The notes under the pieces are model-generated. The model saw only the letters and a program-made list of their open reading frames with translations, was not told where the DNA came from and did no database searches. Positions 5,437 through 59,083 of a stretch of 64,000 nt of DNA are shown here, piece after piece; position 1 is the stretch's first letter; each line of letters opens with the position of its first letter. This stretch comes from Naegleria gruberi. Taxonomy: Eukaryota. The stretch is taken from the NCBI GenBank assembly GCA_000004985.1, contig GG738903.1; one strand, 5' to 3'. The position numbers and the translations under genes were made by a program.

Positions 5437-6834
5437 TTAATCATTGAGAGGAATATCAACAAAGATATCTTCATATTGTATATTATCGATTTTCGTCGTA
5501 GTAGTTTGATGATGATCAGTAGCAGTACTCATAGTGGTATTACTGTCATTACTTTTCTTACTGTCATTACAATTGGTTGGAGCACGCAACTGATCAGTTG
5601 CAATCGCCTCCTGAGGCCCAAAGGAGCTAGTAATGTTGAAGGGTGAGTAAATGGGCTGCTTGTTTGTTGCTGTATACTTGATCATCATCATGGAAGATAT
5701 TTCGCTGGCTTTTCTAAATGCCTTTGAATCAATATTGAAAGAGTTTGAAGTTTTTTGATTGGTGAGTTGAATTTCACTGGTTTGACATGAGGATTGAGTA
5801 TTATCCCCATGTGGCTTCTTCTTACCTTCCAATTTTAATTCATAATGAAAGTAATCCATAGGTCCAAAACTGAAACTCACACAAATGGCAAATAACAGAA
5901 ACACAAATCTATGAATGACACCAGTCAATATGAACAAGTATGGATACCATATACCAATAGCTCCCAAAATAATTGAGATTGAATTAATAATTGCCATGTA
6001 GAATTGACCAAATGTTAAGAGTACCAACTTTTTACATGCATTTCTGCGAGGGATTGGGACTGGCCTGTTTTGGAGAAGGTATCTTGAGAGTAGAAGAACC
6101 AAAGTTAAATTTAACACTCCTGTAATGATGGCACATCCAGAGTTTACAAGACCAACAATGGCCACAGAAATAATTGACCAAATGCCAAGAATACTTCCAA
6201 CTCGTGTATTTCCTCCATCCATATAATATACCATTGAACAGATCAGAGTGAATGGAACGAGAATAATGAATGCAATAGTCCAAATTAATGTCATTCCAAT
6301 TGTGTAATATTTTGTAAATATTCTAAACTTTTCATTGAATGAATAGCTTTCTGCTCCCTTCCTCATCCATGAATGAGATTGATGAAAGTAAATTCCATAC
6401 AATACTTTTGAAACCATTGCTTGAAAATAGGTACACATTACAACAGTTGACACGAGTCCACAATAATAAATAACGAAAAATAATTGACTCAAAAATTCCT
6501 GAATATGAGTCAGTGCTCCAACATCGTGAGCTATTCCAACTCCCTGTGAGAGAATTTGCAAGATGGCTGTAAATATTAAGGAAATGTAAAAGAATCTCTT
6601 GAAGGGAATCATTTCCTTCCATCGTTTGATGAGGAGAGTGGTCATTATAATGGTCAGTATCAGATAACTCAGTATTCCAATTCCATGAGTAGTAACAGAA
6701 ATGTAGTATCGTTCTATTGCAGAAGTAAAAGTTGATGATGAAATATTGTATTGATGGAAAACTATTCCTGGATTCAATGAGCCATGCTGATGCTGGTCAA
6801 CAATAGAAACAGTCATCTCACGATTATTATTCAT
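5437..6834 (-). CDS. Seven-transmembrane receptor-like protein, paralog C (465 aa) with an extended S/T/N-rich C-terminal tail
   Basis: ATG at 6834..6832. Seven hydrophobic segments. It shares the family motifs ('AMVSKVLYGIYFHQSHSWMRK', 'VSFSFGPMDYF'). The tail is long and low-complexity. Confidence 0.7.
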   Translation of the reverse strand: MNNNREMTVSIVDQHQHGSLNPGIVFHQYNISSSTFTSAIERYYISVTTHGIGILSYLILTIIMTTLLIKRWKEMIPFKRFFYISLIFTAILQILSQGVGIAHDVGALTHIQEFLSQLFFVIYYCGLVSTVVMCTYFQAMVSKVLYGIYFHQSHSWMRKGAESYSFNEKFRIFTKYYTIGMTLIWTIAFIILVPFTLICSMVYYMDGGNTRVGSILGIWSIISVAIVGLVNSGCAIITGVLNLTLVLLLSRYLLQNRPVPIPRRNACKKLVLLTFGQFYMAIINSISIILGAIGIWYPYLFILTGVIHRFVFLLFAICVSFSFGPMDYFHYELKLEGKKKPHGDNTQSSCQTSEIQLTNQKTSNSFNIDSKAFRKASEISSMMMIKYTATNKQPIYSPFNITSSFGPQEAIATDQLRAPTNCNDSKKSNDSNTTMSTATDHHQTTTTKIDNIQYEDIFVDIPLND

Positions 6835-9729: not shown

Positions 9730-12700
9730 ATGAAAAATTTGTTAATGTGGAAAATAGAAAAGGAAAAGGGTTCTAAAAAGAAGGAAGAACCAAAAAAGCC
9801 AAATTTTGAAGTGAAAACACTTGCGAAGCATTCGTTGGATTTGACTGAATTTGTAAACGAAACTCAAGAAACCACAACCACTCGAGAATTACTTCTCACT
9901 CCAGAAAATAAGAAATTCAATTCAGGACTCAAAATTCTTGTCAAACTCGTGATGAATTGTAAATGTTTGAAAGATGTTCAGGATGATGAAGATTTTGAAA
10001 ATGTCAGTACATTTTCTGGAACTTATCGTGAAGGAGAATTGGACGATGATGAGAAATCTGAAGATGAGGATGATTTGGCAGAAGCTGAAAAGACATTTGA
10101 AAGTACCATGATTAAGAATAGTAGTTTATATTACAATAGTGTTTATGGAAATAATTCAAATTCAACCACCGCTAGTAGCACAACTCAAGCACCACCAACA
10201 AGTGGTGCTACCACCTCAACTGTTCAGAATGTAGTCTCCCAGAGTAGTACTATCAGTAGCAGTAGCAATTCTTCAGCAAGTCAACATGAGACTCCAAGTA
10301 GAGAAATGCAAGAAAAGTTGCACTTCCTCCAAATTGAAAATGAACAATTGAAACAAAATCTGGAAACTTCACAAGAGGCTGCTCAACAAGCAGAATCAAA
10401 ATTATTTGAAATTCAACTCAAAATGCAAATGGTTCAATCAAAGGCCGATAAGGAAATCAAAGCAGTTGAAGATAAGATTAAAGAGATTGAAAAGGAAAAT
10501 GAAGACCATGAAAAGCAGTTGAATTTCAAACACCAAGATCAAGTCAAACGTTTGGAAAGTGACATTGAAAAGATCAAGAGTGATTTGAGTAAGAAGAATT
10601 TGGATCTCCAAAATGATAAGGAAAAAACTGAAAAGAATTTGAAAAATGAAATTGAAAGATTGAATCTTGAACTCAAACAATCTAATGAGAGATTCTCTTC
10701 AAACTTGAACTCTTCTCAATCCTCTCATCAACAAGAAATTCAACGTTTGCAAGGAGAAATTTCCGAATTGAACAAAAAGAAGGACTCTGAAGTGAAAGAA
10801 CTCCAAAAGCAACTCTCAGAAGTTACTGCTCTCAAAAAGTCAATTGAAAACAAAAAGTTGGAATTGGAAAATTCTCTCAGTGACATGACTAAAAAGTTCC
10901 TCCAAGTTGAGAAGGAAAATAAGGAAAAGCAACAAGAGCTTTTCAATGCTTCTCAACAATTACAAAAGGAAATTAAGGAAAGAGAGACAATTACTGACAA
11001 ACTTCAAAATGAAAACAAGCTTCTCAATATTGAAATTCAAGAACTCAAGGTGAAACAATCCGAAAATGAAAAGAAGGGAAGTTTGGCCACTTCTGAAAAT
11101 TCTAAACTTGTCGAAACTTTAAAGAATGAAAGAGAAACTCTCAATAATCAACTCACTAAACTTGAGCAAACTCACAAGCAATTAGAAATGGACAAGTCAA
11201 ATCTCTCCTTCCAAATCACAACTCTTGAACAAGCATCTCAAGATAAGGAAAAGCAAATTTCCCAACTCAAGCAAGATTTGGAAAAGATCAAACAAGAATC
11301 TTCACAACAAATTCAAACAGCTAACACCAAGATTGATCATTTGGAAATCGATCTTAATAACCTAAAGGAAAAGGAATCTAAGTTAGAAAAGTCTGTATCC
11401 GAACAGACTTTACAAATCAACCAACTCAAACAAATTGTCACTGAGAAGGAACAATCGCTCCAAGAAAAGGATCAAGAAATTAGAAAGAATGAAAGTCAAA
11501 TTTCCAATTTGAATCAAGAAATTGATGATCTCAATTCCAAGATTAAATCTCTTGAGGAGAAACTTTCTGAAACTGAAAATTCTCTCAGAAAGGAATCTGA
11601 AAAGCTCAAATCGACTTCATCAGAATTGACAGCAAGTTTGATTTCTATCAAGAATCTTGAATCTGAAGTTGAGGAAAAGGAAGACAAGATTACTGAACTT
11701 GAAAACCAAATCAGACAATTAGAATCCAGTTCATCCAATGTTGGAAAGGAAAGTGCTGAAAAGATTAATGAAAGAAATGAGAGAATTCTCGACTTGCAAA
11801 ATGAGCTTTCAAAGCTCAAGTCACAAAAGAAAAAGTCTGACAAAAAGATTGAAGAACTTGAAGAGCAAAGCAAATCCTTGCAAGATGAAAATGTTGAATT
11901 AACTGATCTTATTGAAAAATGTTCCAAGCGTATGGATGATAAGGAAAAACAAGTCAAGAAATTGGAAGAATCTCACAAGAAGGCAATCGAAAGTGTCGAA
12001 CAAAAATGTGCTCAAGAGAAGGTCCTCGTAGAACGTGAGGTTGAAAAGGTCAAGATTGATCTATTGGCAGTTCAATATGCTACTCTAGAGCAATTCATTT
12101 TGGATAGAACTGTTTTGAATAGTGTCACCAATGACTTCCTTCCTTTGGAAAATCTTTCCAAGATTTACTTTAAGAACATCATGGTAAAGGACTTTTTATC
12201 TGATACCTATCCAACACCAGCCAAGATTCTCCTCAAGTGCATTCTTCAATGGAATCCAGACGAAGTCAAGAGTGCCACCGTCGATTCAAAGATTATTCTC
12301 GGCACTACTTTCTGCACCAATCTCAATATTGCTCTGAAATATCTCGTTGAAAAATTCAAGACCACTAGACACAAGGTCAATATCTATGCAGCTGGTGCAA
12401 GCGAATCTGGAGAAATTGAAAACTCTACCAGTCTCATTCTCTTCTGGATTCATACCTTGTACAGATTATTGCACGATTTGGAGCTCAAGAAGAAGGATCT
12501 CAAATTACCAACTACATTCTCTGAAGTTATTGCCAAGAGCTTTAAATTGGATGCAGCTCTCTTGTGTGGCGATGAAACTCAAGTTCCTAAATTTGCCACT
12601 CCTCCATACTTTGTCAAGTATAATGAAATGGAGAAAGTGGATGAGACTTTTACTGTCAAGAGTCTTCAACAATTGGTTGGTAGCATTTCAGAAATTATGG

Positions 12701-17093: not shown

Positions 17094-18383
17094 TCAACCA
17101 GTGAAGGAATAGCAGAAATTGGAATAATCTGTTTCTGGTAGAACAATAAAGTTGAAGAATTCAATAAATGGCTTTGAATGGACCGAAAGACTTTTGGAAT
17201 ACGAAATTGGATTATGGAAATTCTCAGAATCATTGAGGCACTTTTCACAAATTCGCAAGTTTCCAATCTCTGAGGAATAAATACCCACCACTGATCCATC
17301 TTCTTTCATTGATTGGTAATACTCTCTTAGACAATCACTGCATCTTACAAACCCTCCACCCTCATGAATTCCATGAAATTCAACCAAAATAAAATTGTTA
17401 ACATGGTGAACTTTACAAGATTTAGAAATCATTACACCCCCAGAGCTACCAAAAGTAAGACATTCAGAACTGGCTAAACACTCTTGAGTGGAGTGGTCGT
17501 ATTGGAATTCTTCGTTTTTCTCCCATATATCATTATTGGAAACTTGGAAAGGATGAAGAATTTTGCCAACACTGGCACACAAACTTCCATTACCATTAAA
17601 GATGTTGTTCTTTAAGAACGAATCTGTTGGAGCCCACTCTGCATAATTATGATAATCTATTAAAGGGGAAACAGAGTTTTCATTTCCAGGATACGAAAGT
17701 GTGATTATTTCATCTCCAGGTTGCAAAATGGTTGAAGAGGGAATAAAGAAAACATTGTTTGGTTGGCCAGAGTACTTGTTAGCTGCAAAATCAAAATACG
17801 AAAAATCCCCAATCTTTCCAGTAATTGGATCTCTACCAATCCATTCTTTTGTTTGTTTAAACTTTGTTGGAAAGGGTGCATCCTTATATACTTGACCAGA
17901 AAAGAAAAGTTGTTTCTGCTCTGGAAGATCTTTCAATCTAGCCAAGGCGTCTTCATAATTGCTAATGTTCCATGCATTGCTGTAGGCAAAACAAAGGTTA
18001 GATCCAGTAGCACTTTGCAATTTGTTATTCACATGACAATTAGTTATCACCACATTCGGGAGCACATAAAAACCAGAAGCAGCATATACTAATCTCCCTG
18101 TTTGCTTCTCAACTGAACATAATCTAACAACAGCCTTTGAGCCTTCCTTTGCACTCTCTAGGGACTTTAAAACATCCAAATATTCGATTAGATATTTGCA
18201 ATTTGGTGCTGTCCAGTTTAGTTGTTGATTAAACCAAAAAACATTGAAACATGTATTGGGAGGAAAATGAGCCTTATTGTCTTGACTTGGTGGAACTTTT
18301 TCAAAATTCTCTTCCGAAACAATTTCATTCCCCGAAGGAATGTAGCAAGTAATTACTTCTAAACGCTCCTTGAAGAATCTCAT
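17094..18383 (-). CDS. Trypsin-like (S1 / Deg-like) serine peptidase domain protein
   Basis: Real ATG at 18383..18381 ('MRFFKE'). 'ASGFYVLPNVVITNCHVNN' resembles the His-box of Deg/trypsin-like proteases (GSGFII..GYILTNNHVV). 'TFGSSGGVMIS' resembles the catalytic Ser motif GNSGGP. No signal peptide. The call rests on motifs only. Confidence 0.45.
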   Translation of the reverse strand: MRFFKERLEVITCYIPSGNEIVSEENFEKVPPSQDNKAHFPPNTCFNVFWFNQQLNWTAPNCKYLIEYLDVLKSLESAKEGSKAVVRLCSVEKQTGRLVYAASGFYVLPNVVITNCHVNNKLQSATGSNLCFAYSNAWNISNYEDALARLKDLPEQKQLFFSGQVYKDAPFPTKFKQTKEWIGRDPITGKIGDFSYFDFAANKYSGQPNNVFFIPSSTILQPGDEIITLSYPGNENSVSPLIDYHNYAEWAPTDSFLKNNIFNGNGSLCASVGKILHPFQVSNNDIWEKNEEFQYDHSTQECLASSECLTFGSSGGVMISKSCKVHHVNNFILVEFHGIHEGGGFVRCSDCLREYYQSMKEDGSVVGIYSSEIGNLRICEKCLNDSENFHNPISYSKSLSVHSKPFIEFFNFIVLPETDYSNFCYSFTG

Positions 18384-18862
18384 TGTAGCAATAAGTTTGT
18401 TTTTTTTCAAGTTTTTAATAAGGTTTGTAATAAGGTGAATAACTGCGCAAGCATTTTATTAAATTCGCGCTCAAAATCTACAGTAAAATACAACAAAATT
18501 TCAAGTTAAAAAAAATAACTCAAAATCTGTGTGGTATTGTTTTTGCTGCTCGGTTCGAACATTATAACATGTGCTTATCAGATTCTTCATCAACATCCTC
18601 TCTGATACACATTCGAATATTACAAACATATTTGTTTCTAACACGAAATCCAAAACTCATCGTGTAATAAGGGCTCATCCGTTAATACAACCTGATAGCA
18701 CTTTTGATTCGTGCTTTGACTTTGTTTGTTAACTCCTCCTAGGCGAGTCACTTCACAAGTCAGATCCAAATTCTATCAGTGACACTTGGTGAAAAGATAA
18801 AAGCTGTCAAATTGTGAGTAACGATCTGGTTCATCAGCTAAAAAAAACCAAACAAACACAAC

Positions 18863-21066
18863 ATGAACAGCAAGAGTATCATCTCATTGTTGCTCGTTGC
18901 CGTTTTGGCCATCGTTTTCATGTCAAGTGGAATTGATGCCAGAAAGAGCAAGGCAAAGAGAGCTGCTGAAGCAACACTGAAACGTTGCCAAGCATTAGGT
19001 GACCCACACTACAAAACTTTCAATGGAAAATTCGATTTCTACGGAGTTGGTGATTACGTTTTTGCTCAAACCAATGACGGTAATCTTATTATTCACACTA
19101 GAACTGGAAAGTGGAACAAGGCTTCAGTCAATACCGCTGTTGGTATGTAATTTAATTATTATTCCAATATCATGATTTTAACAATAATTATTCACATAAT
19201 ACATTTCATGATGCAATTTATTTTCAACTGATGACATTTGACATGTGGAAATTATTACTTCATATTTTTTCATGATGCATCCAATTCTTCTTTTAAAACT
19301 ATTTATCAAAAACAACAGCTGTTAAACTTGAAGGATCAAGAATTTTCGAATATGATGTTGTTTCTGATAAATTCTTCTTGAACAAGGTCCCAACCAAGAT
19401 TAACGTTGGTGAAACCGTCTCTTTGGGAACCAAATCATCAGTTAAGAGAGCTTCACAAACTTCATTCGTTGTCACTGCATCAAATGGTGCCATCTTGTCT
19501 GCCTCTTATTCCAGAAGCCCAGCTTATTTGAAGACTGGATCAATTGGTCACATTAACTTGATTCTCGATTCACCAAAGTCTGTTGACTACACTGAAGGAT
19601 CATTGTGTTCAAGAGCAAAGGTTAACGCCAGAACCCGATTGCCACGTGCTATTGGTATTTTGCATAACCACAAGATTAGAAAATTCAGAAAGGTTCCATC
19701 AACCAAGGATTTCCCAGCTGATAAGGTCAAGAAGGCCAGATCTGTCTGTAGAAAGGCTGGTATCAAGTTGAAGAAGCATCCAAATGCTTTCAAGGCTTGT
19801 GTTAAGGATCAACTTTTGACTGGTAAGAAATTGGGTAAGAAGATTGCCAAGAAGATCGCCAAGGTTGAAAAACTTGAAGATAAGAAGAAGAAGAAACTCG
19901 TCAAGAAGATTATCAAGAAGGCCAAGAAGGCTGCCAAGAAGAGACTTGTCAAGAAGAAGAAGTTGTTGAAGAAGTTGAAGAAATTGTTAAAGAAGAAGTC
20001 TCGTGCTGCTAAGAAGGCTGTTAGAAAATTGAAGAGAAAGCTCAGAAAGTTGAAGAGAAAGCCAAAGAAGGTCTCCACCAAGACTAAGAAGGCTAAGAGA
20101 GCTTCAAGAAAATTGAAGAGAAAGCTCAGAAAGTTGAGAAGATGTGCTAAGAAGGCTAAATCTTTGAAGAAGAGAAAGGCTTGCAGAAAGCTCTTGAAGA
20201 GAATTAGAAAGTTGAGAAAGCTCAGAAAGTTGAGAAGAAGAGGTGCCAGAAGAGGTGCTAGAAGACCAAGACGTGTTATCATCATCAAGAAATGCAAGAG
20301 ATCTCCAAGAAGAAGAGGTGTCAGAAGACCAAAGAGAAGAACTTCTAGAAAGATCAAGAAGGCCCAAAAGAAGAGAGCTAAGAAACTCGTTAGAAAGCTC
20401 AGAAAGATCAAGAAGGCTCAAAAGAAGAGAGTTAAGAAGGCTAAGAGAGCTGCTAGAAAGGCTAGACGTGCTGCTAGAAAGTTGAAGAGAAAGCTCAGAA
20501 GATTGGCTAGAAGACTCAAGAAGGCCAAGTCTTTTAAGGCTGCCAGACGTGCTAGACGTGCTTTGAGACTTGTTAAGAGACGTGCTAGACGTGCTGCTAA
20601 GCGTGCTTGTAAGCTCCGTAAGAGAGCCAAGAAGGTCAAGAAGGCTCTTAAGAGAAAGGTCAAGAAGGCCAAGAGAGCTGCCAGAAAGGCTAGAAAGGCT
20701 AGAAGAAACAGAAGACTCTCCAAGAAGGTTAAGAAGATCGTCAAGAGAACTTCTAGAGTTGTTGTCAAGAAGACAACTGCTAGAAAGATCAGAAAGTTGT
20801 TGAGAAAGGTCTTGAAGTTGAAGAAGAGATTGGGTAGAAAGTTCTGTCCAAAGAAGCACTTGCCAAGAAAGCTCAGATTGCTCTTGAAGAAATTGAAGGT
20901 CAAGATTGTTGCTTGTAAGAGAGGTAGAAGAGTTTCTAAGAGAAGAATCAACAAGAGAAAGCTCAGAAAACTCAGAAAGGTTAGAAAGGTCAGAAGAAAC
21001 AGAAGAGGTGTTACTGTCATTGGTAAGAGACTTGCCAGACAATTGGTTAAGGTTTCTAGATGTTAA
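18863..21066 (+). CDS. Secreted von Willebrand factor type D (VWD) domain protein with a roughly 430-residue polybasic (Lys/Arg/Ala/Leu) repeat tail. Two exons: 18863..19142 and 19319..21066.
   Basis: ATG at 18863. Signal peptide 'MNSKSIISLLLVAVLAIVFMSSGIDA'. VWD start 'GDPHYKTFNGKFDFYGVGDYVFAQTNDGNLIIHTR'. After the intron the VWD domain continues ('VKLEGSRIFEYDVV...NAFKACVKDQLL'). The tail is 'KKLLKKLKKLLKKKSRAAKKAVRKLKRKLRKLKRKPKK...'. The opposite-strand ORFs over the tail are L/S-rich mirror artefacts. Confidence 0.6.
19143..19318 (+). other. Spliceosomal intron (176 nt) in the VWD/polybasic gene
   Basis: Donor GTATGT at 19143 after '...NTAVg'. Acceptor AACAG at 19314..19318. The phase-1 join g|ct gives Ala and continues the VWD domain. 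Confidence 0.55.
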
Positions 21067-21195: not shown

Positions 21196-23357
21196 ATGAA
21201 GAAGGTTCTTAGTCCATCATCTCTTCAACTCAATTTGAAAATTGCTTCGGGAGCTATTGCTTCATCATCAAAACATGCAACACAAATTGTAAAATATCTT
21301 GCTCAACAACAGCTGGCATCTGTTAATTCTTCCTATCATCAATCTAGTCGAGTTTCAACAAGCAAAAAAAAGGATAACGATGATGATGAATTTAAAAAGA
21401 ACATGAACAACATATTTGGAGCATTGGGAGGCTCGGAACAAGTGAAAGGACATTTGAATGATATATTCAATGCTTTTTTAAAACCTGGAGCAAATATTCA
21501 TACTTCAGGTGCTTCGAATTCTTCATCTTCATCATCTAAAAAGAGTGAACAACAAACAACGGAAAATGATGAAGCAAACAAGCCAAAGAATACCTTCATT
21601 CAAGATGAAGAACGATTAAACGAGAATTTCCACAAGATTGTCTTTGAAGCCTATCACATGCAACGTAAACAATTTGAAAACAAATTGACACCACAAGAAA
21701 TTGTGAATTGTCTTGATAAACATATTGTTGGACAAAAGGATGCAAAGAAGGCTGTCAGTGTAGCCCTTCGTAATAGATATAGAAGAAAGATTTTGATTGA
21801 TTGGGCAAAGAGTGAAAAAACTTTACTTGATCCTTCTGAGATAATTCCAAAGAATATTTTAATGATTGGATCAACAGGTTGTGGTAAAACTGAAATTGCA
21901 AGAAGATTGGCAAAATTAGTTTCTGCTCCATTCTTGAAGGTTTGTTTAATTCAATGTTCTCTATTAATTTATTATTATTATTTTATTATTATTATTATTA
22001 TTGGAATGTTCTTAATGAAAAAATTATATAGGTGGAAGCAACTAAATATACAGAACTTGGATATCATGGAAGAGATGTGGATACTATTGCTAGAGACTTG
22101 GTGGATGTTTCTATCAATGTTTTGAGAAATAATATTACTGATCTTTTCAAACAATTTTTAAATAGACCACCATCATCAACACCATCCGAACAAGAAGAAG
22201 GAACTTTGGAAGAACCAGACTTGTTTGGATCCTATCTTCAACAATTAATAGAGTATAGAATCATTCACTTGATGATTGGAACAAAAAATATAGCAAATTT
22301 GAGAAATGGTACCATTAAGGATTATTTGAACATGTTAAGAAATGGAGAATTGGACGATAGAAAAATTGAAGTGAGCATGCCTGAAAAGAAATCATCATTA
22401 GGATTATCTCAATTCAGTGACGTGTTTGATGCTGTCAAGGGTTCATTTGGATCATCTCTTGATAATTCCAAATTTTCAATGCCAGATGTTGCCAACTTGT
22501 CAGATCATCAAACACCACTTGACTCAATGTTAGGTCAATTAAATCCACAAAAATATAAAAAGGTTGAAATGACAATTAAGGAAGCCAAAGTGAGATTAGT
22601 AGAGTTGGAAATGGATAAATTTTTGAATAGCCCATTATTCATTGAAGAGGCAAGAAAGATTGCTGAAAGTGATGGAATTGTCTTTATTGATGAAATTGAC
22701 AAGATTTGTGGAAGTCCTGAAAAGAAGGCCGTTCAAGGAGATGCCTCAGGAGAGGGAGTGCAAAGGGATTTATTACCACTGTTAGAGGGTTGCACAATTA
22801 ATACTAAATATGGTCCAGTCAAGACGGATCATGTTTTGTTTATTGCTAGTGGTGCTTTCCATCAACAAAAGCCATCTGATTTAATGTCTGAATTCCAAGG
22901 TAGATTGCCAGTAAGAATCATGTTAACTGCACTTAATACGCCTGAAGAGCTCTATCAAGTATTAACAATGCCAGAATTCAACCTTGTGAGACAAAATATT
23001 TCCCTTATGAATAGTGAGGGTATTTCTTTGGTCTTTAGTGACGCAGCTAATAGAGAAATTGCCAATTTCAGTGCCTTGTGTAATGCAGGAAATGATAATC
23101 TTGGTGCAAGAAGATTAATTGGAATTATTGAAAAGGTAATTGATGAAATGTCTTTTATTATTCCAGACTTAGTGAGAATGGAGGATACTGAAAAAGCTGC
23201 ACAAGAATTGAGAAATATTGGATTTAACACTTTTGAAATATCAAGACAAGATAATAGAAATGCTATTACAATCACAATAACAGCCGAAGATGTGCAAAAG
23301 AAACTGGAAAAGAGCTCACAATTTAAAAAGTTGGATGTGAAGAAGTTTATGATTTAA
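21196..23357 (+). CDS. hslU: HslU (ClpY) AAA+ ATPase subunit of the HslVU protease, with a roughly 160-aa N-terminal extension. Two exons: 21196..21939 and 22032..23357.
   Basis: It aligns with E. coli HslU along its whole length: '[21 protein letters not shown]', Walker A '[19 protein letters not shown]', 'APFLKV|[22 protein letters not shown]' across the intron, Walker B 'VFIDEIDKI', and '[12 protein letters not shown]', '[10 protein letters not shown]', 'LQGRLPVRI', 'GARRL'. Confidence 0.88.
21940..22031 (+). other. Spliceosomal intron (92 nt) in hslU
   Basis: GTTTGT...(ATT)n-rich...TATAG. Exon 1 ends in phase 0 after 'PFLK'. Exon 2 begins 'VEATK', restoring the universally conserved HslU segment. 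Confidence 0.85.
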
Positions 23358-23376: not shown

Positions 23377-26300
23377 TTAAAGTTCAAATCTTGCATTTGC
23401 TTTCATTCTTTGTTTGAGTTCGTTCACAATAGCAAATGATTTGTACTCATCTGTGAAAATAAACCTAGAGAAGGTATCACTCAAGTTCATAACAATTTGT
23501 TGATAGAGAGAATCAGCACATCCATTAATCATTCTTTGATAACCAACCCACATTACTTTGTTTTCTGTATTGTTTGCTTCTGCCTTCTTTTGTTCATCAA
23601 CCAATTTTACACTTGATTGACTAAAGTCAAGTTTGATTGGCTGGGCATTCATGGATTGCATTGGAATTGACTTTGTCTTTTTAGTATTCAACTCTCCATA
23701 CAGAATGCTTTCATAAACCTTATCCACAAATGGCTTGTCTTTACCTTGCTCGACAACCATCTTGAATAAGAGTAAGAATGAATTTCTTGAATGTGATGGA
23801 ATATTCACTTCCATAGTTGCTCCTAATTTGATGTAAACCTCGTAGGTGCTGACACAGTACGAGTAGAGATGTTTCAAGAACTCTTCAGAATCGTCCATCT
23901 TATTCTCCAAAGTATCCATAAAGAGCTTGATATCAACATACATGTAAAGATTTTCCAAAGACCATTCCTTTTTACAGAACTCCTCAAATAGAATAATACC
24001 TTCAGAGTCTGACATTACTTGAGAGAGTTCCTCATTTTCTAATTCCACTGCTTCTTCTTTCTTATTGTCATTAGGTTTTTCAGTTGTAATCTTCTTGTAG
24101 AAATTATAAAGTGAAACCAAGGAAACAAATCCACCAAATGCTAAAATATAAAATACAATATAGACAGTTTCAATGGCAAATCTGGCTGAGTCAAAGACAA
24201 GCCCAATTGTGAATTGTTTAGTGTCAGAGCTGGAGAATTTTCCATCAATACTGGCAAGACCTAACGCTTGAGAAACAATGAGGAAGATAAAGAATGCCAC
24301 AAAGAATATCATTTCCAAACGGTAGAACAGTGGAGTATCTCTTCTAACAAACCATTTCCATACTGTGTGTAATACTGTTGATATTTGAATTGTTTCCTTT
24401 CCTTTACCTGATGAAGTATCAGCACTAATTGGTTTAGTTTCTAATTTCTTTTGTCCTTTTCCTTCAGTAGTCGCTCCTTGATTTGTAAGTCTTGCAGAAA
24501 TTGAAGACTCCTTTGAATCGTCATCAAATTTGTAAGTCAAAATCATATCAGCAACGAAAATTAAAGCAACAATCAAGGCAAATGTCAAAATGACAACACA
24601 ATAGGATACAGAAACAATAGTAGTGTAGTCATTAGCACCAATAACTCCAGTATACTTGAGAACAAACCACAAAGTCCAATAGAGAATGTTAGCTACAGCA
24701 AACAAACATAAAATAGCATAATAGATTGGATTTGAGGTCAATCTCTTGAATGTTGTAATCTTCTTTGCATAATTTGCTAAAAGATTACCTTCCTTATTTC
24801 TCATCACATTCATTAAATTGTAAAGATGCTTCATGAATAAGTAACGAACCACTTGTAAGAGGAAGGCGAGAATGGCTGTTAAATTGAGAGTGTTGACAAT
24901 AATTGAAGCTATACCACCAAACCAATTGACTACATTAGTGACATCAGTTTCATAAGCTGCCGATTTCAATGTATTACTCAATAATTCATTAACAAGAATG
25001 GAATTTCTAATAATTGAAATCAAAACACATTCAGTCAACAGGGCAATCATACCCAAGTATGGAGCAACAAGTCTACTCTTAATAGGTTGCTTATTTTTAA
25101 ATATTGTGAGCAATACCAAAACAATAACAGCCACAATTCCATAAATTCCTCCAAAAACTATTTCAGCAATGTAATAACTGGCAACTTGTAATTTGTAGCT
25201 ACTATTAACAGCACTAGTCAAATTGAATTGCAAGAAAGTACCAAATCTTGTGGTATGGTCACACTTACAAACAACATCACCATTAACAAATGAAGAGACG
25301 TAACAACCATTTCCTAACCAAGCATTTTCGGTTTCATTCCAATATCTGCACTCCATTGTGGTATTGGTAATATTCTTATTTGATGTCAAGGTAGAAAGTG
25401 ATGTCTTGTCGAGAGAGAACGTCAAAGCAATAGGATTTTTGAGATTTCTCAATTCAACTTGACTGTCTGACATACTGAGTGTGAATTCCGTTAGAGGTGC
25501 AAGAATATAACTCTTCTTTGAGAAGGAATCAACCTTTGAGTTGATAGAGTAGGCTATGAATGATAAGCCAAAGGATCCAGTTGTTTCATTTGAAATTTGT
25601 TGGAAAATAGAATTCATATCCAAACTAACTTGATTAATACCAGTTGAAAGAGTTTGATTGGTAGTTGTTGGAGTTGACTTATCCAGAGAGAATGCAGAAA
25701 TTGTAATATTGACCATATCAGTTGCAAATGAAAGAGTTGGAACTGATCCAGTTGTAACCAATGTTGGAATTTCACCAATGAGAGCTGTATCAGCTGTACT
25801 TTCTGCAGTTGATTCCACCTTTTCAGAGTTTAGTCCAGTTTCCAATAAATTTGAAACAAGTTTTAGTGTTGAAAATGTGACAGTTGAATCCAAAATCTTT
25901 GTCTTGACAAATGAATACAATGCCTTTTCTTCTAAATATTGAGCTGTAACATTTGAAACGAAATTGGCTAACTTGGTGTTTACCTTGTCGACCATTTCAG
26001 AGCTCATCTTTGAAGGATCTGAAGTAATGGTAAGGAAAGAATCCAATGCACTTTGTGGATTCTTAATATCAAATTGAACATTGTCAATTAATTGATTCAA
26101 AACGGCTTGTGATTCATTGGTTGAAATTGATCGAGTAGAAATGGATGTATCATAAGAGTAAAGAACTGATTGCTCAGAAGAGCTAGCACTACTCAATAAA
26201 TTCAATAATTCCGAAACTGTTCCATTGTAAGGCGAAACTGTGACTGTTGAAGAATATGTCCACTCTTCATTACCATACTTATCGGCAACAAAGAGAATAA

Positions 26301-29300
26301 CAGTGACAGTCTCATCGTTGGTGCTTCTACTCTTCTTTGTTTGAGTCAAATAAGGAAGAATGGAACTGAAAGTGGAATTAGTAGTGTATGAAGTGATTCT
26401 GACAGGTTTTTGTTGTGTAGAATCATAAACACCTAAAGCATACGTGAGTGGTTTGAGAGAATCGGCAGCTGACCATTCCTGAACTGTGAAAACGAAATTT
26501 TCAATAAGTGCCATACCTTGAGTTGGCATTATAGTGACGAGTTTTGTTGTATTCTTTGGAGCTGATGCTGGTGGGATGATTGGATAAGTTGAGGTGATTG
26601 AAAAACTGGAATTACTGTCCTGATTTCTAAATTCCAAAATAATTTCCAAAATTGATTCTTCAGCAGTGTTCTGTGTGAGATTTGTAATTTGCGATTTGAA
26701 ATTGGAAACAGAATAGGAAAGATATGGAGAGCAAGTAAATCCATCAAGAGCAGAGTTTGGAACAATGGTTACATTTCCAGAAATGTCTAACATGTTAAGA
26801 GTTTGATTGAATCTAACGACAAGTGAGTATTCAACTTTCTTTGCTGCACAACCACCATTGTTACATCCCAAGAATCTTACCAAAGCACTTTGATTCAAAG
26901 AAACTGTCGGTACAACAATATCCAAACTAGTTGGTAAGGTATTGGTTGTGTAAGCTTCCTTCACACCAACAACAGATACAGAGTATGATTCTGGCACTTG
27001 AATAATGGTAATATTAAAACTAAATGTGTTTGATTGTCTGTAGAAGAAAACACCATCCTCTGAGGTTACAGCCATAGCCGACAATTCAAGATTGAAAGTT
27101 CCTGTTGGTAATACATAAACATTGAATAGGGCAATTGATTGAGTAATATTTGAAAGATAATCACTTCCATTATTTCCTTGACAATTAGTACATGTCCAAT
27201 TGTAAATCACATTTTCCAACAAGTATGGTTGTGGAAGAATCTCACCTAGAACAGCATGAAGTGACAAACTAGAAATATTGTTGTAGACACTATAACTCTC
27301 TACCGTGTAACCTCCAATTTTAAGTGAGACTGTAATTGGAGATTGTGTGATATTACAATTCTTACCAAACCATGGATAACTGCATTCACAAGTATTAGGA
27401 CTATTACAGATACCATTTTGTGAGCAAACATCCAAAGAAGTTGCATTCACACCAAAGCAAATTGGTGTTTGACAATTTTCTCCAGTGAAACCATTTGTGC
27501 ATTCGCAATTATTTGGCGATTTGCATTGACCATGTCCAGAACAAACATTCAATGTATCATTAAAGTACAAAGAATAGCATTGGTACAGAGTACATTCCTC
27601 TCCAAAGTAACCTTGTACTTGACAAGAGCAAGTATTTTCAGAATTACATTGACCTTTTCCATTACAAACTTGTGGATCGGTTGAATTCTTTCCGAAACAC
27701 GTTGAGAATTGACAATTATTACCAGAGTATGTTGAAGTACAATTACAGAAATCGACACCAATGCAGCTTCCTCTTTGGTTACAAACATTTGAAGAGTTGG
27801 CAAGAATATTTTCACACTTGAAGATTTCACAATTTGAACCGCCATATCCATAGCCACATGAACACAAATCAGTGTCAATACATTGACCAAAACCTGAACA
27901 AACTGATGGCATAGTTGAATTGATTCCGTAACAAATTGGGTATTGGCACTTGTCTCCAGTGTATCCTGTAACACAAGAACACTTATCAGGAGAAATACAT
28001 GAACCCTTTCCACTACAAATAAACTTGGAATCTTGTGAAGTATTATTTCCAAAGCAAGAAACATATTGACAGTTATTTCCACTATATCCTAAATTACATG
28101 AACAATTATTTGGTAAAATACATTTACCAAATCCAGAGCACACAGTATTATTGAGATAGTTCAATCCATAACAATTGTAATCTGTGCAATTCTTTCCATA
28201 GTAATTATAATCTGTACAGTAACAAACGTCTGGAGAAGTACAAATACCTTTTGCATTACATTGTGTTGGATCATCAAAGGTTCTATTATAACAAATTGGT
28301 TTGTTACATTGTCCACCAGACGAAAAACCAGATAGACATTGGCATGTATCTGGTGCAACGCAGCTACCATTATTGGAACAGACATTTGGATCTAGAGCCG
28401 AGAGTGAGTAACAAACTGGAATGTCACATCTGGAACCTGTGTATTGAGAGGTACAATTACATAAATTGGCACCAGTACAATTTCCCTGAGAGCTGCAATA
28501 TGCAACACCATCACATGAGTAGGCAGAACATTCTGCATTGCCTTTCCATCCAGTGTTGCACTGACAAGTATTATTGGAAATACACAAGCCATTTCCATGA
28601 CAGTTGTCAGAGGCATCACATGTGAAAGTATTACAATTTGAACCTGTCCAGCCAGATCTACATTGGCATGTGTTATTTCCAATACATTGACCATTTTGAG
28701 AACAAGAATTAACTCCGTCACAACTAATAACTGAACAATTGGAACTTCCTTTCCATCCACTTTGACATTGGCAAGTATTGTTTGAAATACATAAACCATG
28801 ATCGTAACAATTAAGCACACCATCGCATGTGAAAATGTCACATTTTGGTCCAGACCATCCAGATCTACATTGACATGTGTTATTTCCAATACATACTCCA
28901 TTTTGAGAACAGCCACTAACACCATCACATGAGAATTGGGAACATTCTGCATTGCCTTTCCAGCCACTATAACATTGGCAAGTGTTGTTGGAAATACACA
29001 AGCCATTACTGTTACAATTTGAAGAGGCATCACAAGTGAAAACATTGCAACTTGCTCCTGTCCAACCAGACCTACATTCGCATGTGTTATTTCCAATGCA
29101 TTGACCATTTTGAGAGCATGAATTAACACCATCACAAGTAATTGCCGAACAATTCGAGTTACCTTTCCATCCACTAACACAGTTGCATGTATTAGCGCCT
29201 GTACACGTACCATGTCCTGAGCAGAAATCTCTATCCTTACAAGTAAAAGTATTACAATTAGCTTCTGTCCATCCACTGTTACAATTACAAGTATTATTTG

Positions 29301-31509
29301 AAATACAAGTACCGTGTCCATTACAAGCTCCTAATGCATCACAACTGATTGCTGAACAATTTGCATTACCTTTCCATCCACTATCACAAGTGCATGTATT
29401 TGCGCCTGTACACGTACCATGTCCAGAACAGTAATTTCTTTGATCACAAGTGAAAACTGAACAATCGACAGCACCTCTCCAACCTGTTTTACAACTGCAA
29501 GTGTTATTCGAAACACAAGTACCCTTACTGGCACCTCCACAATTACTTAAGGCATCACAACTAATTGCTGAGCAATTTGCATTTCCTTTCCATCCACTTT
29601 CACAAGTGCATGTATTAGCACCTGTACACGTACCATGTCCTGAACAATAATTAGTTCCGTCACAAGTGAATTCAGAGCAGTTACTAGCTCCTCTCCATCC
29701 TGAATTACAGGTGCAGGTATTTGGACCGCTGCATATTCCGTGTCCATAACAACCTCCAACTAGCTCACAACTCACTGAATTACAACTTGTGTCTCCCTTC
29801 CAACCATCATTACATGAACAAGTATTTGCACCAACACATTCACCATGCCCAGAACAATAATTGCGCGAATCACACGAGAATATTGAGCAATTACTAGCTC
29901 CTCTCCATCCTGAATTACAGGTGCAGGTATTTGGGCTGCTGCATATTCCATGTCCATAACAACCTCCAACTAGCTCACAACTCACTGAATTACAACTTGT
30001 ATCTCCCTTCCAACCAGCATAACAAGAACAATTATTGGGTCCAATACAGTCACCATGAGATGAACAATAATTGCGCGAATCACACGAGAATATTGAGCAA
30101 TTGGCAGCTCCTCTCCAGCCAGTAACACAAGAGCATGTATTAGCAGAAGTACATGTTCCATGGTTTGAACAAACATTTGCTGTATCAGTTGCATTGTAAG
30201 AGTAACAAATTGGAATGTTGCACGAAATTCCAGTCCAATCAGTATTACATGAACAATATGTTTCTGAAGCACAAGAACCATGTCTTCTCCAACATTGTAG
30301 AGATGGCGAACACAATTCATAGGAACAATCAAGTCCTGTATAGTTGGTGGCAGTACAGTTACAACTGTTCGGAGCAATGCAATCTCCCTTATTGTAACAA
30401 ACATTTGGTGATGGATAATAGTAACCGTAGCAAATATTGTATTGGCATTCAGAACCAGTATAACCAGTATTGCAGGAACAAGTATTCGGTGAAGTACAGG
30501 TACCTCTCACAGATCCAGAGCAAGCATTTGCTGTATTATTGGAAGGTATTCCATAGCAAATTGGATATTGACATTTTGGCCCAGTGTATGTCGAATTACA
30601 TTGACATGTGTCAGTATCAATACAGTTACCATGCCCTGAACAAATAACTGATGAGATATTTTTAAAGGTACTCACTCCAAAACATATTGGAATTTCACAA
30701 TTATTTCCTGTGTAACCTTGTGGACATTGACATTGATTAGTAAAAACACAAGTTCCTCTTCCTGAACAAACAGTAGTATCATTTTGTAAAATTCCATTAC
30801 AAATAGTAACATTACAATCATTTCCAAACCAATTGGCTTTACAATTACAAGTATCCAAATCAGTACAATTACCATGTGAATTACAGACATTTGAGGCATT
30901 CTGAACTATTCCAAAGCATGAAGGAGTGCCACATTGAGTACCACTCCATCCATCATCACATTTACACACATTGGTATCGATACAATCTCCATTTCCTTTA
31001 CAAACAGAATTTGTTTCATTCTGTAATATTCCAAAACAGGAGGTAACATTACAATCAATTCCATACCAATTTGATGAGCATGAACAAGTATCAGTACCAG
31101 AACAAGTTCCATGCCCATTACATACAGCACTTGTTTCATTCTGTAATATTCCAAAACAGGAGGTGATTTGACATTGAGTGCCATACCAATCTGGATCACA
31201 TTCACAATTATCTTGTTCGGTACAGTTTCCTCTTCCGTTACAAACTTGGGTTGTGTTTGACAATTTTCCAAAGCAATAGATGAGTGTATTGTTGTTGGAT
31301 TCTTGTGCTTGTGTGAAAAGGAAACTCTCTTTAGTTTCGAATATTTGTTGTTGGTCTTGATGGAATAAAAACATCATGATGAAACAAGTTGACAAAATTG
31401 ATGCATATAAAATTATATTCATCAGAAAGGAATGATTACCCGGAGAAGATTGTTTCCTCCTTGTCATTCCAATACGAGAAAACCCATTATTATTATTGCT
31501 TCTCATCAT
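23377..31509 (-). CDS. Giant adhesion-GPCR-like receptor, 2710 aa. From N to C: signal/anchor, roughly 60 tenascin-type EGF-like repeats, an S/T-rich stalk, a GPS-like motif, 7TM, and a C-terminal RGS domain.
   Basis: Continuous 8.1 kb ORF. Repeats of the form C-x-C-xxG(W/Y)xGxxC. GPS-like 'CRYWNETENAWLGNGCYVSSFVNGDVVCKCDHTTRFGTFL'. Seven hydrophobic helices follow. The C-terminal RGS fold is 'ILFEEFCKKEWSLENLYMYVDIKLF...YEVYIKLGATMEVNIPS...'. Confidence 0.8.
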   Translation of the reverse strand: MMRSNNNNGFSRIGMTRRKQSSPGNHSFLMNIILYASILSTCFIMMFLFHQDQQQIFETKESFLFTQAQESNNNTLIYCFGKLSNTTQVCNGRGNCTEQDNCECDPDWYGTQCQITSCFGILQNETSAVCNGHGTCSGTDTCSCSSNWYGIDCNVTSCFGILQNETNSVCKGNGDCIDTNVCKCDDGWSGTQCGTPSCFGIVQNASNVCNSHGNCTDLDTCNCKANWFGNDCNVTICNGILQNDTTVCSGRGTCVFTNQCQCPQGYTGNNCEIPICFGVSTFKNISSVICSGHGNCIDTDTCQCNSTYTGPKCQYPICYGIPSNNTANACSGSVRGTCTSPNTCSCNTGYTGSECQYNICYGYYYPSPNVCYNKGDCIAPNSCNCTATNYTGLDCSYELCSPSLQCWRRHGSCASETYCSCNTDWTGISCNIPICYSYNATDTANVCSNHGTCTSANTCSCVTGWRGAANCSIFSCDSRNYCSSHGDCIGPNNCSCYAGWKGDTSCNSVSCELVGGCYGHGICSSPNTCTCNSGWRGASNCSIFSCDSRNYCSGHGECVGANTCSCNDGWKGDTSCNSVSCELVGGCYGHGICSGPNTCTCNSGWRGASNCSEFTCDGTNYCSGHGTCTGANTCTCESGWKGNANCSAISCDALSNCGGASKGTCVSNNTCSCKTGWRGAVDCSVFTCDQRNYCSGHGTCTGANTCTCDSGWKGNANCSAISCDALGACNGHGTCISNNTCNCNSGWTEANCNTFTCKDRDFCSGHGTCTGANTCNCVSGWKGNSNCSAITCDGVNSCSQNGQCIGNNTCECRSGWTGASCNVFTCDASSNCNSNGLCISNNTCQCYSGWKGNAECSQFSCDGVSGCSQNGVCIGNNTCQCRSGWSGPKCDIFTCDGVLNCYDHGLCISNNTCQCQSGWKGSSNCSVISCDGVNSCSQNGQCIGNNTCQCRSGWTGSNCNTFTCDASDNCHGNGLCISNNTCQCNTGWKGNAECSAYSCDGVAYCSSQGNCTGANLCNCTSQYTGSRCDIPVCYSLSALDPNVCSNNGSCVAPDTCQCLSGFSSGGQCNKPICYNRTFDDPTQCNAKGICTSPDVCYCTDYNYYGKNCTDYNCYGLNYLNNTVCSGFGKCILPNNCSCNLGYSGNNCQYVSCFGNNTSQDSKFICSGKGSCISPDKCSCVTGYTGDKCQYPICYGINSTMPSVCSGFGQCIDTDLCSCGYGYGGSNCEIFKCENILANSSNVCNQRGSCIGVDFCNCTSTYSGNNCQFSTCFGKNSTDPQVCNGKGQCNSENTCSCQVQGYFGEECTLYQCYSLYFNDTLNVCSGHGQCKSPNNCECTNGFTGENCQTPICFGVNATSLDVCSQNGICNSPNTCECSYPWFGKNCNITQSPITVSLKIGGYTVESYSVYNNISSLSLHAVLGEILPQPYLLENVIYNWTCTNCQGNNGSDYLSNITQSIALFNVYVLPTGTFNLELSAMAVTSEDGVFFYRQSNTFSFNITIIQVPESYSVSVVGVKEAYTTNTLPTSLDIVVPTVSLNQSALVRFLGCNNGGCAAKKVEYSLVVRFNQTLNMLDISGNVTIVPNSALDGFTCSPYLSYSVSNFKSQITNLTQNTAEESILEIILEFRNQDSNSSFSITSTYPIIPPASAPKNTTKLVTIMPTQGMALIENFVFTVQEWSAADSLKPLTYALGVYDSTQQKPVRITSYTTNSTFSSILPYLTQTKKSRSTNDETVTVILFVADKYGNEEWTYSSTVTVSPYNGTVSELLNLLSSASSSEQSVLYSYDTSISTRSISTNESQAVLNQLIDNVQFDIKNPQSALDSFLTITSDPSKMSSEMVDKVNTKLANFVSNVTAQYLEEKALYSFVKTKILDSTVTFSTLKLVSNLLETGLNSEKVESTAESTADTALIGEIPTLVTTGSVPTLSFATDMVNITISAFSLDKSTPTTTNQTLSTGINQVSLDMNSIFQQISNETTGSFGLSFIAYSINSKVDSFSKKSYILAPLTEFTLSMSDSQVELRNLKNPIALTFSLDKTSLSTLTSNKNITNTTMECRYWNETENAWLGNGCYVSSFVNGDVVCKCDHTTRFGTFLQFNLTSAVNSSYKLQVASYYIAEIVFGGIYGIVAVIVLVLLTIFKNKQPIKSRLVAPYLGMIALLTECVLISIIRNSILVNELLSNTLKSAAYETDVTNVVNWFGGIASIIVNTLNLTAILAFLLQVVRYLFMKHLYNLMNVMRNKEGNLLANYAKKITTFKRLTSNPIYYAILCLFAVANILYWTLWFVLKYTGVIGANDYTTIVSVSYCVVILTFALIVALIFVADMILTYKFDDDSKESSISARLTNQGATTEGKGQKKLETKPISADTSSGKGKETIQISTVLHTVWKWFVRRDTPLFYRLEMIFFVAFFIFLIVSQALGLASIDGKFSSSDTKQFTIGLVFDSARFAIETVYIVFYILAFGGFVSLVSLYNFYKKITTEKPNDNKKEEAVELENEELSQVMSDSEGIILFEEFCKKEWSLENLYMYVDIKLFMDTLENKMDDSEEFLKHLYSYCVSTYEVYIKLGATMEVNIPSHSRNSFLLLFKMVVEQGKDKPFVDKVYESILYGELNTKKTKSIPMQSMNAQPIKLDFSQSSVKLVDEQKKAEANNTENKVMWVGYQRMINGCADSLYQQIVMNLSDTFSRFIFTDEYKSFAIVNELKQRMKANARFEL

Positions 31510-58747: not shown

Positions 58748-59083
58748 TTGGGTCTGGCCTTAGTCGTGGGTTTGGGTTTGGTTAGGTTGGGTTTGGGTGT
58801 TGGTTGGGGTTTGGGTGTTGGTTGGGGTTGGGTTTGGGTTTGGGTTTGGGTTTGGGTTTGGGTTTGGGTTTGGGTTTGGGTTTGGGTTTGGGTTTGGGTT
58901 TGGGTTTGGGTTTGGGTTTGGGTTTGGGTTTGGGTTTGGGTTTGGGTTTGGGTTTGGGTTTGGGTTTGGGTTTGGGTTTGGGTTTGGGTTTGGGTTTGGG
59001 TTTGGGTTTGGGTTTGGGTTTGGGTTTGGGTTTGGGTTTGGGTTTGGGTTTGGGTTTGGGTTTGGGTTTGGGTTTGGGTTTGG
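58748..59083 (+). repeat. Telomere-type (GGGTTT)n array, with the G-rich strand on the plus strand. Its proximal edge is degenerate and it runs into a gap.
   Basis: It begins with degenerate units 'gggtctggccttagtcgtgggtttgggtttggttaggttgggtttgggtgttggttgggg', then about 45 perfect GGGTTT units up to the N run. Confidence 0.85.

Follow-up and report, generated by a model that had tools for sequence, protein, structure and literature searches.

In VWD domains that carry a GDPH motif, the Asp and His residues of the motif are needed for a spontaneous cleavage of the chain, and this cleavage stabilises the domain (PMC10880436). In FCGBP, the cleaved fragments are described as remaining joined by disulfides (PMC8267560). 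Secretion, a VWD domain and Lys/Arg-rich regions have been found together before in a characterised flatworm glue, Mlig-ap1, a secreted protein of the VWD-C8-TIL type with Lys/Arg-rich regions of more than 3600 amino acids (aa), which is required for adhesion and whose attachment is blocked by heparin (PMC6410801). Its function is charge-dependent, and polycations block its release (PMC6410801). In protists, VWD domains were noted by Lang et al. (2016) in a few organisms "such as Naegleria", the architecture reported here not being described (PMC4948705). Here, a gene for a putatively secreted VWD protein with an extreme polycationic tail is reported from the plus strand of a 64-kb stretch of the genome of Naegleria gruberi NEG-M (referred to as the window; all coordinates are positions in it). 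As judged by sequence comparison, it is the most extreme member of an existing, unstudied heterolobosean family whose other members are already in the databases as hypothetical proteins.

The locus is a genuine two-exon protein-coding gene that appears to be missing from the public proteins of N. gruberi, and we are highly confident that the gene, the architecture of its product and the family to which it belongs are all real. Exon 1 (18863-19142) contains the ATG, the signal peptide, Cys42 and the first VWD strands, and ends in phase 1. The open reading frame (ORF) opened by the ATG at 18863 ends a few codons into an AT-rich stretch, which is an intron of 176 nucleotides (nts) at 19143-19318 (GTATGT...AACAG, with the GT at 19143 and the AG at 19317-19318). 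Exon 2 (19319-21066) encodes the remainder of the VWD, a helical subdomain, the polycationic tail and a C-terminal module, followed by the stop. Joining 19142 to 19319, as had been proposed in an earlier note on this DNA, restores the frame and yields a coding sequence of 2028 nts (675 aa) with a TAA stop at 21064-21066. Short GT..AG introns and a G+C content of 30-40% are found in the window. From its N-terminus, the product consists of a signal peptide, a basic leader of 21 residues, a GDPH-type VWD, a subdomain of two helices and two cysteines, a tail rich in Lys, Arg, Ala and Leu (K/R/A/L), and a C-terminal module with two cysteines.

The case for the splice junction, as for translation of the tail, is built on comparison and on sequence statistics. 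The closest relative, C9374_004053 of N. lovaniensis (annotated as "partial", 298 aa, 49-51% identity), is colinear with the spliced N. gruberi protein across the junction. Its intron is located nine codons upstream, after GKWK, while that of N. gruberi follows NTAV. The segment SVNTAV/AVKLEG, split in N. gruberi, is thus an unbroken exon in N. lovaniensis (SVNTAFAVKINQ) and the converse also holds, so that the splice of each species is validated by the uninterrupted exon of the other. A relative found on a contig of the Logan collection (L003) has its intron at the N. lovaniensis position. Hence the single intron of the family is in phase 1 after NTAV in N. gruberi (19143-19318) and in phase 2 after GKWK or GKWN in N. 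lovaniensis (10273-10427 of PYSW02000045.1, L002) and in the L003 relative (1959-2224). These differing positions and phases suggest that the intron has slid, or has been gained and lost independently, in the history of Naegleria. Between N. gruberi and N. lovaniensis, the ratio of non-synonymous to synonymous substitution rates (dN/dS) in the head, the VWD together with the helical subdomain, is about 0.28-0.32 with saturated dS, a ratio by which the head is under purifying selection.

The tail (residues 262-675) comprises 414 aa, of which 134 are Lys and 95 Arg, and its 55% of Lys plus Arg (K+R) agrees well with the earlier estimate of about 430 residues and roughly 50%. The last acidic residue is at position 281, and the next 394 residues are free of Asp and Glu and contain 56% K+R. 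The mature protein would have a net charge of about +255, an isoelectric point of about 12 and a mass of about 75 kDa. A six-frame translation of the 64-kb window shows at least 35% K+R per 100 aa nowhere else. The K/R/A/L part proper (19825-20757, residues 263-573, about 310 residues) contains four predicted amphipathic helices separated by Pro/Gly-rich linkers, and is acid-free from residue 282 (nt 19882) onward. Its repeats are short and degenerate, with periods of 9, 12, 21, 27 and 54 nts and about two to four copies of each, and an artefact from a recent tandem array was rejected for that reason. The locus is well away from any assembly gap, the runs of N in the window being at 43.8 kb and beyond 54 kb.

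Codon usage in the tail is strongly biased. Lys is encoded by AAG in 92% of cases, compared with 77% in the head and 52% in nine other genes of the window. All Arg codons of the tail are AGA or CGT (91% AGA), all Ala, Val and Gly codons end in T or C, and so do six of the seven Thr codons. This bias opposes the AT-richness of a genome of 33% G+C. On this codon evidence, the pattern is one of translational selection, which also avoids runs of A within runs of Lys, and is unlike that of a non-coding purine-rich repeat. In addition, the tail shares its exon and frame with the C-terminal two-thirds of the head, and a terminal module is conserved in frame beyond about 1 kb of Lys and Arg codons, meaning that the ribosome reads through the tract. 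Translation of the tail, assumed in the earlier note, is thus supported by the shared exon and frame, the codon bias, the helical periodicity described below and the conservation of the terminal module. The same note had warned against annotating the long ORFs of the opposite strand, and rightly so. Three of them (19809-20411, 20104-21042 and 20418-21020, minus strand) encode Leu/Ser/Phe-rich products of 200, 312 and 200 aa. They are open because TTA and TCA each occur only once as codons of the tail and CTA does not occur, which leaves the codon-aligned antisense frame (one of three) almost free of stops. By this codon count, the three mirror ORFs are by-products of codon composition and not genes.

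The non-polar residues of the tail (L, I, V, F, M, A, W and C) recur with a sharp 100-degree periodicity that none of 500 residue shuffles reached. The amphipathic character of the cationic helix proposed in the earlier note therefore stands; its single very long helix does not, since AlphaFold2 divides the tail into four. The model, for which the product of exon 2 was submitted together with a family alignment of 22 rows, has a mean predicted local distance difference test score (pLDDT) of 78 and a predicted template modelling score (pTM) of 0.33. The four tail helices (78, 60, 64 and 61 residues; about 263-340, 349-408, 432-495 and 499-559 in full-length numbering) are predicted at pLDDT 80-93, with low-confidence Pro/Gly-rich linkers at 343-348 and 409-431. 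With a pTM of 0.33, the packing of the helices is unreliable and the model may be read for high helical propensity only; a real polycation of +200 would not pack on itself. Fold searches returned generic helical hairpins. The tail also contains about 118 dibasic pairs, seven R-x-[KR]-R sites and seven cysteines, an odd number.

The protein ends in a module that the earlier note overlooked (20758-21063, plus strand, residues 574-675; ...LKLKKRLGRKFCPKKHLP...C626...[basic insert]...VIGKRLARQLVKVSRC675). Its consensus, LKKxLGxK[WF]xPxKHL...C...C, is conserved over about 70-100 residues. In composition-adjusted BLASTP, the module matches the C-terminus of N. gruberi NAEGRDRAFT_59485 (E=8e-8) and that of Willaertia magna ABK040_003113 (E=5e-4), and alignments and a hidden Markov model search place it at the N-terminal end of two further proteins, FDP41_011818 of N. 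fowleri and an environmental relative. It matches no Pfam family. AlphaFold2 models it as short helices around a low-confidence basic insert. Given these matches, the tail region is not purely low complexity. Two other relatives, N. fowleri FDP41_012263 and an environmental protein from ENA, are without the module and both end in C-[LI]-R-I-A (...RRRQCLRIA and ...IEKCIRIA, respectively).

At the other end, the signal peptide (residues 1-26, nts 18863-18940) was recognised by eye from the charged, hydrophobic and small-residue (n/h/c) layout of the N-terminus, MNSKSIISLLLVAVLAIVFMSSGIDA/RK. Judged in the same way, this layout is found in six relatives, and all relatives with a complete N-terminus have it, so that the signal peptide reported earlier is retained here. 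No hydrophobic segment follows it anywhere in the 675 aa, and a membrane anchor or a glycosylphosphatidylinositol (GPI) signal was rejected on this ground.

The Pfam VWD match (PF00094) covers residues 42-147 (18986-19479) and spans the intron, and homology in the head extends as far as about residue 262 (nt 19824). Its score of 26.1-28.2 bits (E=1e-5 to 3e-6) exceeds the gathering score of 22.9 by a modest amount. The domain had been called canonical; the assignment to VWD holds, as the score is above threshold and the head profile matches FCGBP, while the adjective does not, 26.1 bits against 22.9 being a modest score. When a two-sequence head profile was compared with PDB, the best matches were those to FCGBP (E=9e-42, a sum over six of its VWD domains), and the VWD domains of MUC5B, MUC5AC, VWF and MUC2 were also matched. 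The FCGBP alignment runs through a block of the form C-x3-GDPHY-x-F-x-G-x2-DF-x-G, which in FCGBP begins with CQASGDPHY. The GDPH motif (residues 46-49, 18998-19009, plus strand) corresponds to the Asp-Pro autocleavage site of VWD domains, with Cys42 at the canonical C-x3-G spacing (C42-QAL-G46-D-P-H49). Cys190, within GSLC190 at the end of the predicted sandwich, is also present; Cys42 and Cys190 occupy the positions of the first canonical VWD disulfide of VWF and mucin structures. In an alignment of 18 head sequences, the Asp, Pro and His of GDPH are invariant and the Gly nearly so, and the other invariant positions are several Gly residues and Cys237...Cys254-x2-Asp257. The latter belong to the two-helix subdomain (residues about 227-261, 19717-19821), which AlphaFold2 predicts, like the strands of the VWD sandwich, at pLDDT above 90. 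In sequence pattern alone, this subdomain resembles the start of a C8 domain; no Pfam match to C8 or TIL was found at E<=1 in the window protein or in any of 18 relatives. VWD was matched in the heads of all 18 relatives, and RGM_C in eight of the 18 as well (best E=3.9e-9).

The relatives were retrieved with an index-free HMMER search of 1.84 billion representatives, for which the profile was built from the heads of the window protein and of N. lovaniensis and which returned 945 hits, 16 of them below 1e-30. The profile matches the relatives over positions of about 8-297 with E=1e-71 to 1e-174 and identities of 42-51%, and the homologous head of about 230 aa, comprising the VWD and the two-Cys helical subdomain, is full-length in them. 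A word-indexed protein search with the head, the tail or an 18-sequence head profile proved near-blind to the family, returning the N. lovaniensis fragment or nothing. Its silence on the N. fowleri and N. gruberi relatives is thus not evidence of absence, since HMMER found them. No N. gruberi protein was obtained with the head and tail queries in the word-indexed search, and there was no separate entry for the window protein in the index-free search, so that the gene appears to be unannotated in N. gruberi. A look-up of the exon-2 ORF likewise gave no record.

The head search recommended in the earlier note thus recovered a family in N. gruberi, N. fowleri, N. lovaniensis and W. magna, and the view that the architecture belongs to no described family has to be qualified: the family does exist, its entries being listed publicly as hypothetical or "VWFD domain-containing", and Mlig-ap1 provides a characterised precedent for the combination. 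In N. gruberi itself, NAEGRDRAFT_59485 (D2VXA1, 926 aa) has a signal peptide, two tandem heads, a 352-aa tail (46% K+R, 2% Asp plus Glu (D+E)) and the same C-terminal module. N. fowleri FDP41_012263 (A0A6A5C1R4, 533 aa) has a signal peptide, a head and a 239-aa K/R/A tail (45% K+R, 6% D+E), and the ENA environmental protein (603 aa) shares this architecture. In W. magna ABK040_003113 (455 aa), a signal peptide and a basic leader precede the head, a basic tail and the module. Some other members carry the same head on Ser/Thr/Pro-rich or PEPK-type regions. The head is embedded in Ser/Thr/Lys/Pro-rich regions in N. lovaniensis C9374_012355 (1658 aa), N. fowleri FDP41_005632 (921 aa) and N. gruberi NAEGRDRAFT_49892 (1256 aa), while N. 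fowleri FDP41_011818 (491 aa) begins with the module, followed by a Pro/Thr/Glu-rich region and then the head. The more distant relatives are environmental sequences, one of which carries its head on a membrane-anchored stalk, rich in Asn and Thr, with a transmembrane segment as the anchor.

Basic tails, which the earlier note had proposed to look for in related genomes, are present in no fewer than five relatives (four named species and a Logan sequencing sample). They range from 115 to about 400 aa and from 0 to 12% D+E, the tail of the window protein being the most extreme of the set compared. In the L003 relative, the visible part of the tail (about 150 residues) consists of K/R/A/L with essentially no acidic residues. 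Unadjusted BLAST scores between the tails of relatives lie 5-11 standard deviations above those of shuffled sequences. With composition adjustment, the window tail has no significant alignment to four relatives, and FDP41_012263 of N. fowleri gives one weak match of 44 residues (E=0.002). Selection thus seems to act on the bulk properties of the tail, whose composition and local pattern are shared without clear position-specific similarity.

C9374_004053 was considered as the N. lovaniensis ortholog and dropped. In a tree of the heads, the window protein branches separately and the two are not paired, the intron position differs and the neighbours do not match: when the 10 kb that precede C9374_004053 were compared with the window by tblastx, nothing was found, and its upstream neighbours, Tra1 and a gene with an S18 domain, have no counterpart in the window. 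A metagenome scan with the head recovered only distant VWD relatives, with no close orthologs carrying complete tails. The two N. lovaniensis contigs, PYSW02000019.1 and PYSW02000045.1, both stop at position 11050, about 35 residues into the Lys-rich tail, and the Logan contig likewise ends inside the tail. Assemblers evidently break within the tail repeat, which accounts for the "partial" annotation, and such breaks are probably the reason why genes of this kind are missing from annotations. Literature searches for the locus tags of the family, or for Naegleria together with VWFD, found nothing; a paper on the N. fowleri cyst transcriptome and its supplement mention no family member, and papers on Acrasis and on the Naegleria pangenome mention VWA only.

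The cyst wall is the best-documented extracellular structure of these amoebae, whose trophozoites also need reversible adhesion to negative substrata. In the family, the head is joined to mucin-like, proline-rich or membrane-stalk regions, which looks, at the level of domain order, like the pattern of extracellular matrix and surface proteins. The reading that we favour, at a probability of roughly 0.4, is that the protein works as an extracellular electrostatic cement, as a component of the cyst-wall or coat matrix or as a substrate adhesive. It would enter the secretory pathway and lose its signal peptide, and the VWD would then cleave itself between Asp47 and Pro48, as in FCGBP, mucins and RGM. 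The 21-residue basic leader would stay attached through a Cys42-Cys190 disulfide, and Cys237 and Cys254 would staple the helical subdomain. With an odd number of cysteines in the tail, at least one would be left free for intermolecular bonds, and the head and these cysteines could permit self-association or disulfide cross-linking. Alone, the tail would be extended and disordered through charge repulsion, becoming helical once a polyanion neutralises its charge; candidate polyanions are acidic wall polysaccharide, polyphosphate, DNA, bacterial envelopes and negatively charged substrata. If the tail binds polyanions in this way, the molecule would be an electrostatic cement in the manner of Mlig-ap1.

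Several points weigh against this reading. The roughly 118 dibasic pairs are targets of the kexin/furin type, and the tail might not survive the secretory pathway intact. The head is without most of the canonical VWD cysteines and without C8 and TIL, for which reason a mucin-style disulfide polymerisation is not to be assumed. The likeness to Mlig-ap1 is architectural only. A bolder proposal, which we consider doubtful, is that such a giant secreted polycation (about 75 kDa and +255), with a self-processing VWD head and four helices, each 60-78 residues long, whose folding would require contact with polyanions, would represent a new class of charge-driven extracellular effector. It could be a coacervate-forming cement, laid down with polyphosphate, DNA or acidic glycans in the cyst wall or in a reversible adhesive footprint, or else an agglutinating and bactericidal weapon, the two-Cys module serving for anchoring or dimerisation.

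An antibacterial or prey-handling function, the main rival of the cement reading, would make different use of the same features. The protein could be secreted or delivered to the phagosome, where its helices, intact or cleaved into short cationic peptides, would bind, agglutinate and permeabilise anionic bacterial envelopes, the VWD head acting as a carrier or sorting domain. Naegleria is bacterivorous and produces its pore-forming naegleriapores from multi-peptide precursors; Lys/Arg combined with Leu/Ala at a periodicity of 3.6 residues is typical of helical antimicrobial peptides; the 118 dibasic pairs and seven R-x-[KR]-R sites would allow processing, and the codon bias suggests high expression. 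However, the tail shows no discrete peptide units repeated between conserved cleavage sites, only short and degenerate repeats, and its sequence is not conserved between relatives. The conserved module at the extreme C-terminus and the mucin-like and proline-rich paralogs also fit a structural protein better, hence we regard this function as unlikely. The same lack of position-specific conservation could mean that the tail is a mere spacer, either a fast-evolving low-complexity expansion or a pro-region that is removed, leaving the VWD head and the C-terminal module as the working parts. Tail length and acidity do vary widely among relatives (115 to about 400 aa, 0-12% D+E), and other members have Ser/Thr/Pro-rich spacers in its place. 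A spacer would nevertheless hardly exclude Asp and Glu over 394 residues, keep a strict helical periodicity and carry a strong codon bias, all of which point to selection on the tail, nor would one expect basic tails in five or more relatives, drawn from four named species and a sequencing sample. This makes the spacer interpretation quite improbable.

The two remaining explanations concern the secretion of the protein and the existence of the gene. The content of Lys and Arg is as extreme as in nuclear basic proteins, and poly-basic tracts can act as nuclear or nucleolar localisation signals, so that an intracellular nucleic-acid binder (resembling protamine or histone H1) or a nucleolar protein could be imagined if the N-terminal hydrophobic segment were no secretion signal. 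This is very improbable, because the signal-peptide layout is conserved in all relatives with a complete N-terminus, VWD domains are extracellular and disulfide-bonded, and the GDPH motif and the conserved cysteines are retained. Finally, absence from the public N. gruberi protein set might be taken to indicate a pseudogene, an error of assembly or a simple repeat, rich in AAG and AGA, that is not translated and is open by chance. Such an explanation is barely credible for a frame open over 2028 nts across a clean intron, with a head under purifying selection, a C-terminal module conserved in frame, a codon bias that runs counter to the AT-richness of the genome, homologous genes annotated in four species and no assembly gaps in the vicinity.

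To our knowledge, almost nothing is known of the extracellular matrix, cyst-wall and adhesion proteins of Naegleria. Cysts underlie the persistence of these amoebae in the environment, and adhesion underlies their motility and pathogenicity. The present analysis supplies a gene that the reference annotation of N. gruberi appears to lack and illustrates how gene finders and assemblers fail at such loci. It also defines a family that combines a putatively autoprocessing VWD head with extreme polycationic helices and a previously undescribed two-Cys module, and that includes proteins of the brain-eating amoeba N. fowleri. If the protein is indeed an electrostatic cement, it would be an independent protist invention of the VWD and Lys/Arg design of the flatworm temporary glue, which would be of interest for bioadhesion. 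Furthermore, with 394 acid-free residues encoded almost exclusively by AAG and AGA, the Lys/Arg tract offers a natural case in which to test how ribosomes tolerate polybasic sequence.

Elsewhere in the window, four long ORFs correspond exactly to annotated N. gruberi NEG-M proteins, for example 3335-4912 (minus strand, NAEGRDRAFT_73281) and 35263-36840 (plus strand, NAEGRDRAFT_73291). The genes neighbouring the VWD gene encode TPR proteins, a coiled-coil protein and an HslU-like AAA ATPase; they have no relation to it and shed no light on its function. About 130 nts past the stop of the VWD gene, the downstream gene (21196-23357, plus strand) encodes an HslU/ClpX-like AAA ATPase, with a Pfam AAA_2 match on the second of two overlapping ORFs, between which the gene is presumably split by an intron. 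The ORFs 17094-18410, 5437-6834 and 6977-8914 (all minus strand) have no Pfam match at E<=1e-3; the latter two have no exact sequence in the protein collection and may be unannotated or differently modelled genes. A single ORF of 2710 aa (23377-31509, minus strand) includes a strongly C-skewed, G+C-rich segment at about 29-30 kb (G+C 0.41, GC skew -0.30), which suggests another compositionally biased coding repeat; when all six frames were scanned, this ORF stayed below 35% K+R per 100 aa. Long arrays built of GGGTTT hexamers, with a variant here and there, occupy 63700-64000, up to the end of the window, and a shorter patch at about 58770-58800 borders on an assembly gap. Both resemble telomere-type or subtelomeric sequence on the flanks of the gaps filled with N (54245-58238 and 59084-62871); a gap of 50 N is located at 43813-43862.

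Among known proteins, the heterolobosean relatives are the closest to the window protein, sharing the signal peptide, the GDPH-VWD head of about 230 aa with its two-Cys helical subdomain (42-51% identity) and the K/R/A-rich tail, and, in D2VXA1 and Willaertia ABK040_003113, also the C-terminal two-Cys module. The window protein differs in its more extreme tail, with 394 acid-free residues of 56% K+R compared to 46% K+R with 2% D+E and 45% with 6% in the next closest tails, and D2VXA1 has two heads where the window protein has one. In FCGBP and the gel-forming mucins, the VWD domains share the C-x3-GDPHY-x-F-x-G-x2-DF-x-G block and the cleavage residues Asp, Pro and His. The window protein, in contrast, has a single VWD without C8, TIL or E modules, and most of the canonical cysteines are replaced (for example, G-x-C reads GVG). 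As C8 and TIL are absent by profile search, it is not a D assembly (VWD-C8-TIL-E). The low-complexity partner also differs, being an O-glycosylated Pro/Thr/Ser-rich region in mucins and a polycation here. RGM proteins, whose RGM_C is a partial VWD, likewise have a stand-alone VWD-type domain with GDPH autocleavage and without C8 or TIL. However, the window protein scores only 15.4-16.2 bits with RGM_C against a gathering score of 27, has no RGM_N hit and no GPI signal, and its C-terminus is basic; on these profile scores, it is not an RGM.

Mlig-ap1, compared from its published description (PMC6410801), is also a secreted protein in which a VWD is combined with extreme Lys/Arg-rich regions. 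It is, in contrast, a giant metazoan protein with a C-type lectin domain, VWD-C8-TIL and 17 EGF modules, whose Lys/Arg-rich regions flank the domains at both ends and are built from SRKPRRKNRK-type repeats, whereas the window tail is made of amphipathic K/R/A/L helices. No Pfam matches to lectin, EGF or TIL were found in the window protein. The likeness is likely to have arisen through convergence. With helical cationic antimicrobial peptides, the protein shares the amphipathic cationic helix, as seen in the 100-degree periodicity and the predicted helices. Giardia cyst-wall protein 2, with its basic C-terminal extension, and the plant extensins are secreted wall proteins whose basic regions are thought to be bound ionically to acidic wall polymers. 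They are not known to be related to the window protein in sequence or domains, and their basic regions are shorter, or Pro/Hyp-rich and glycosylated. The design of the window protein, a VWD head with a charged low-complexity region, is hence a variant of a known extracellular theme and not categorically new.

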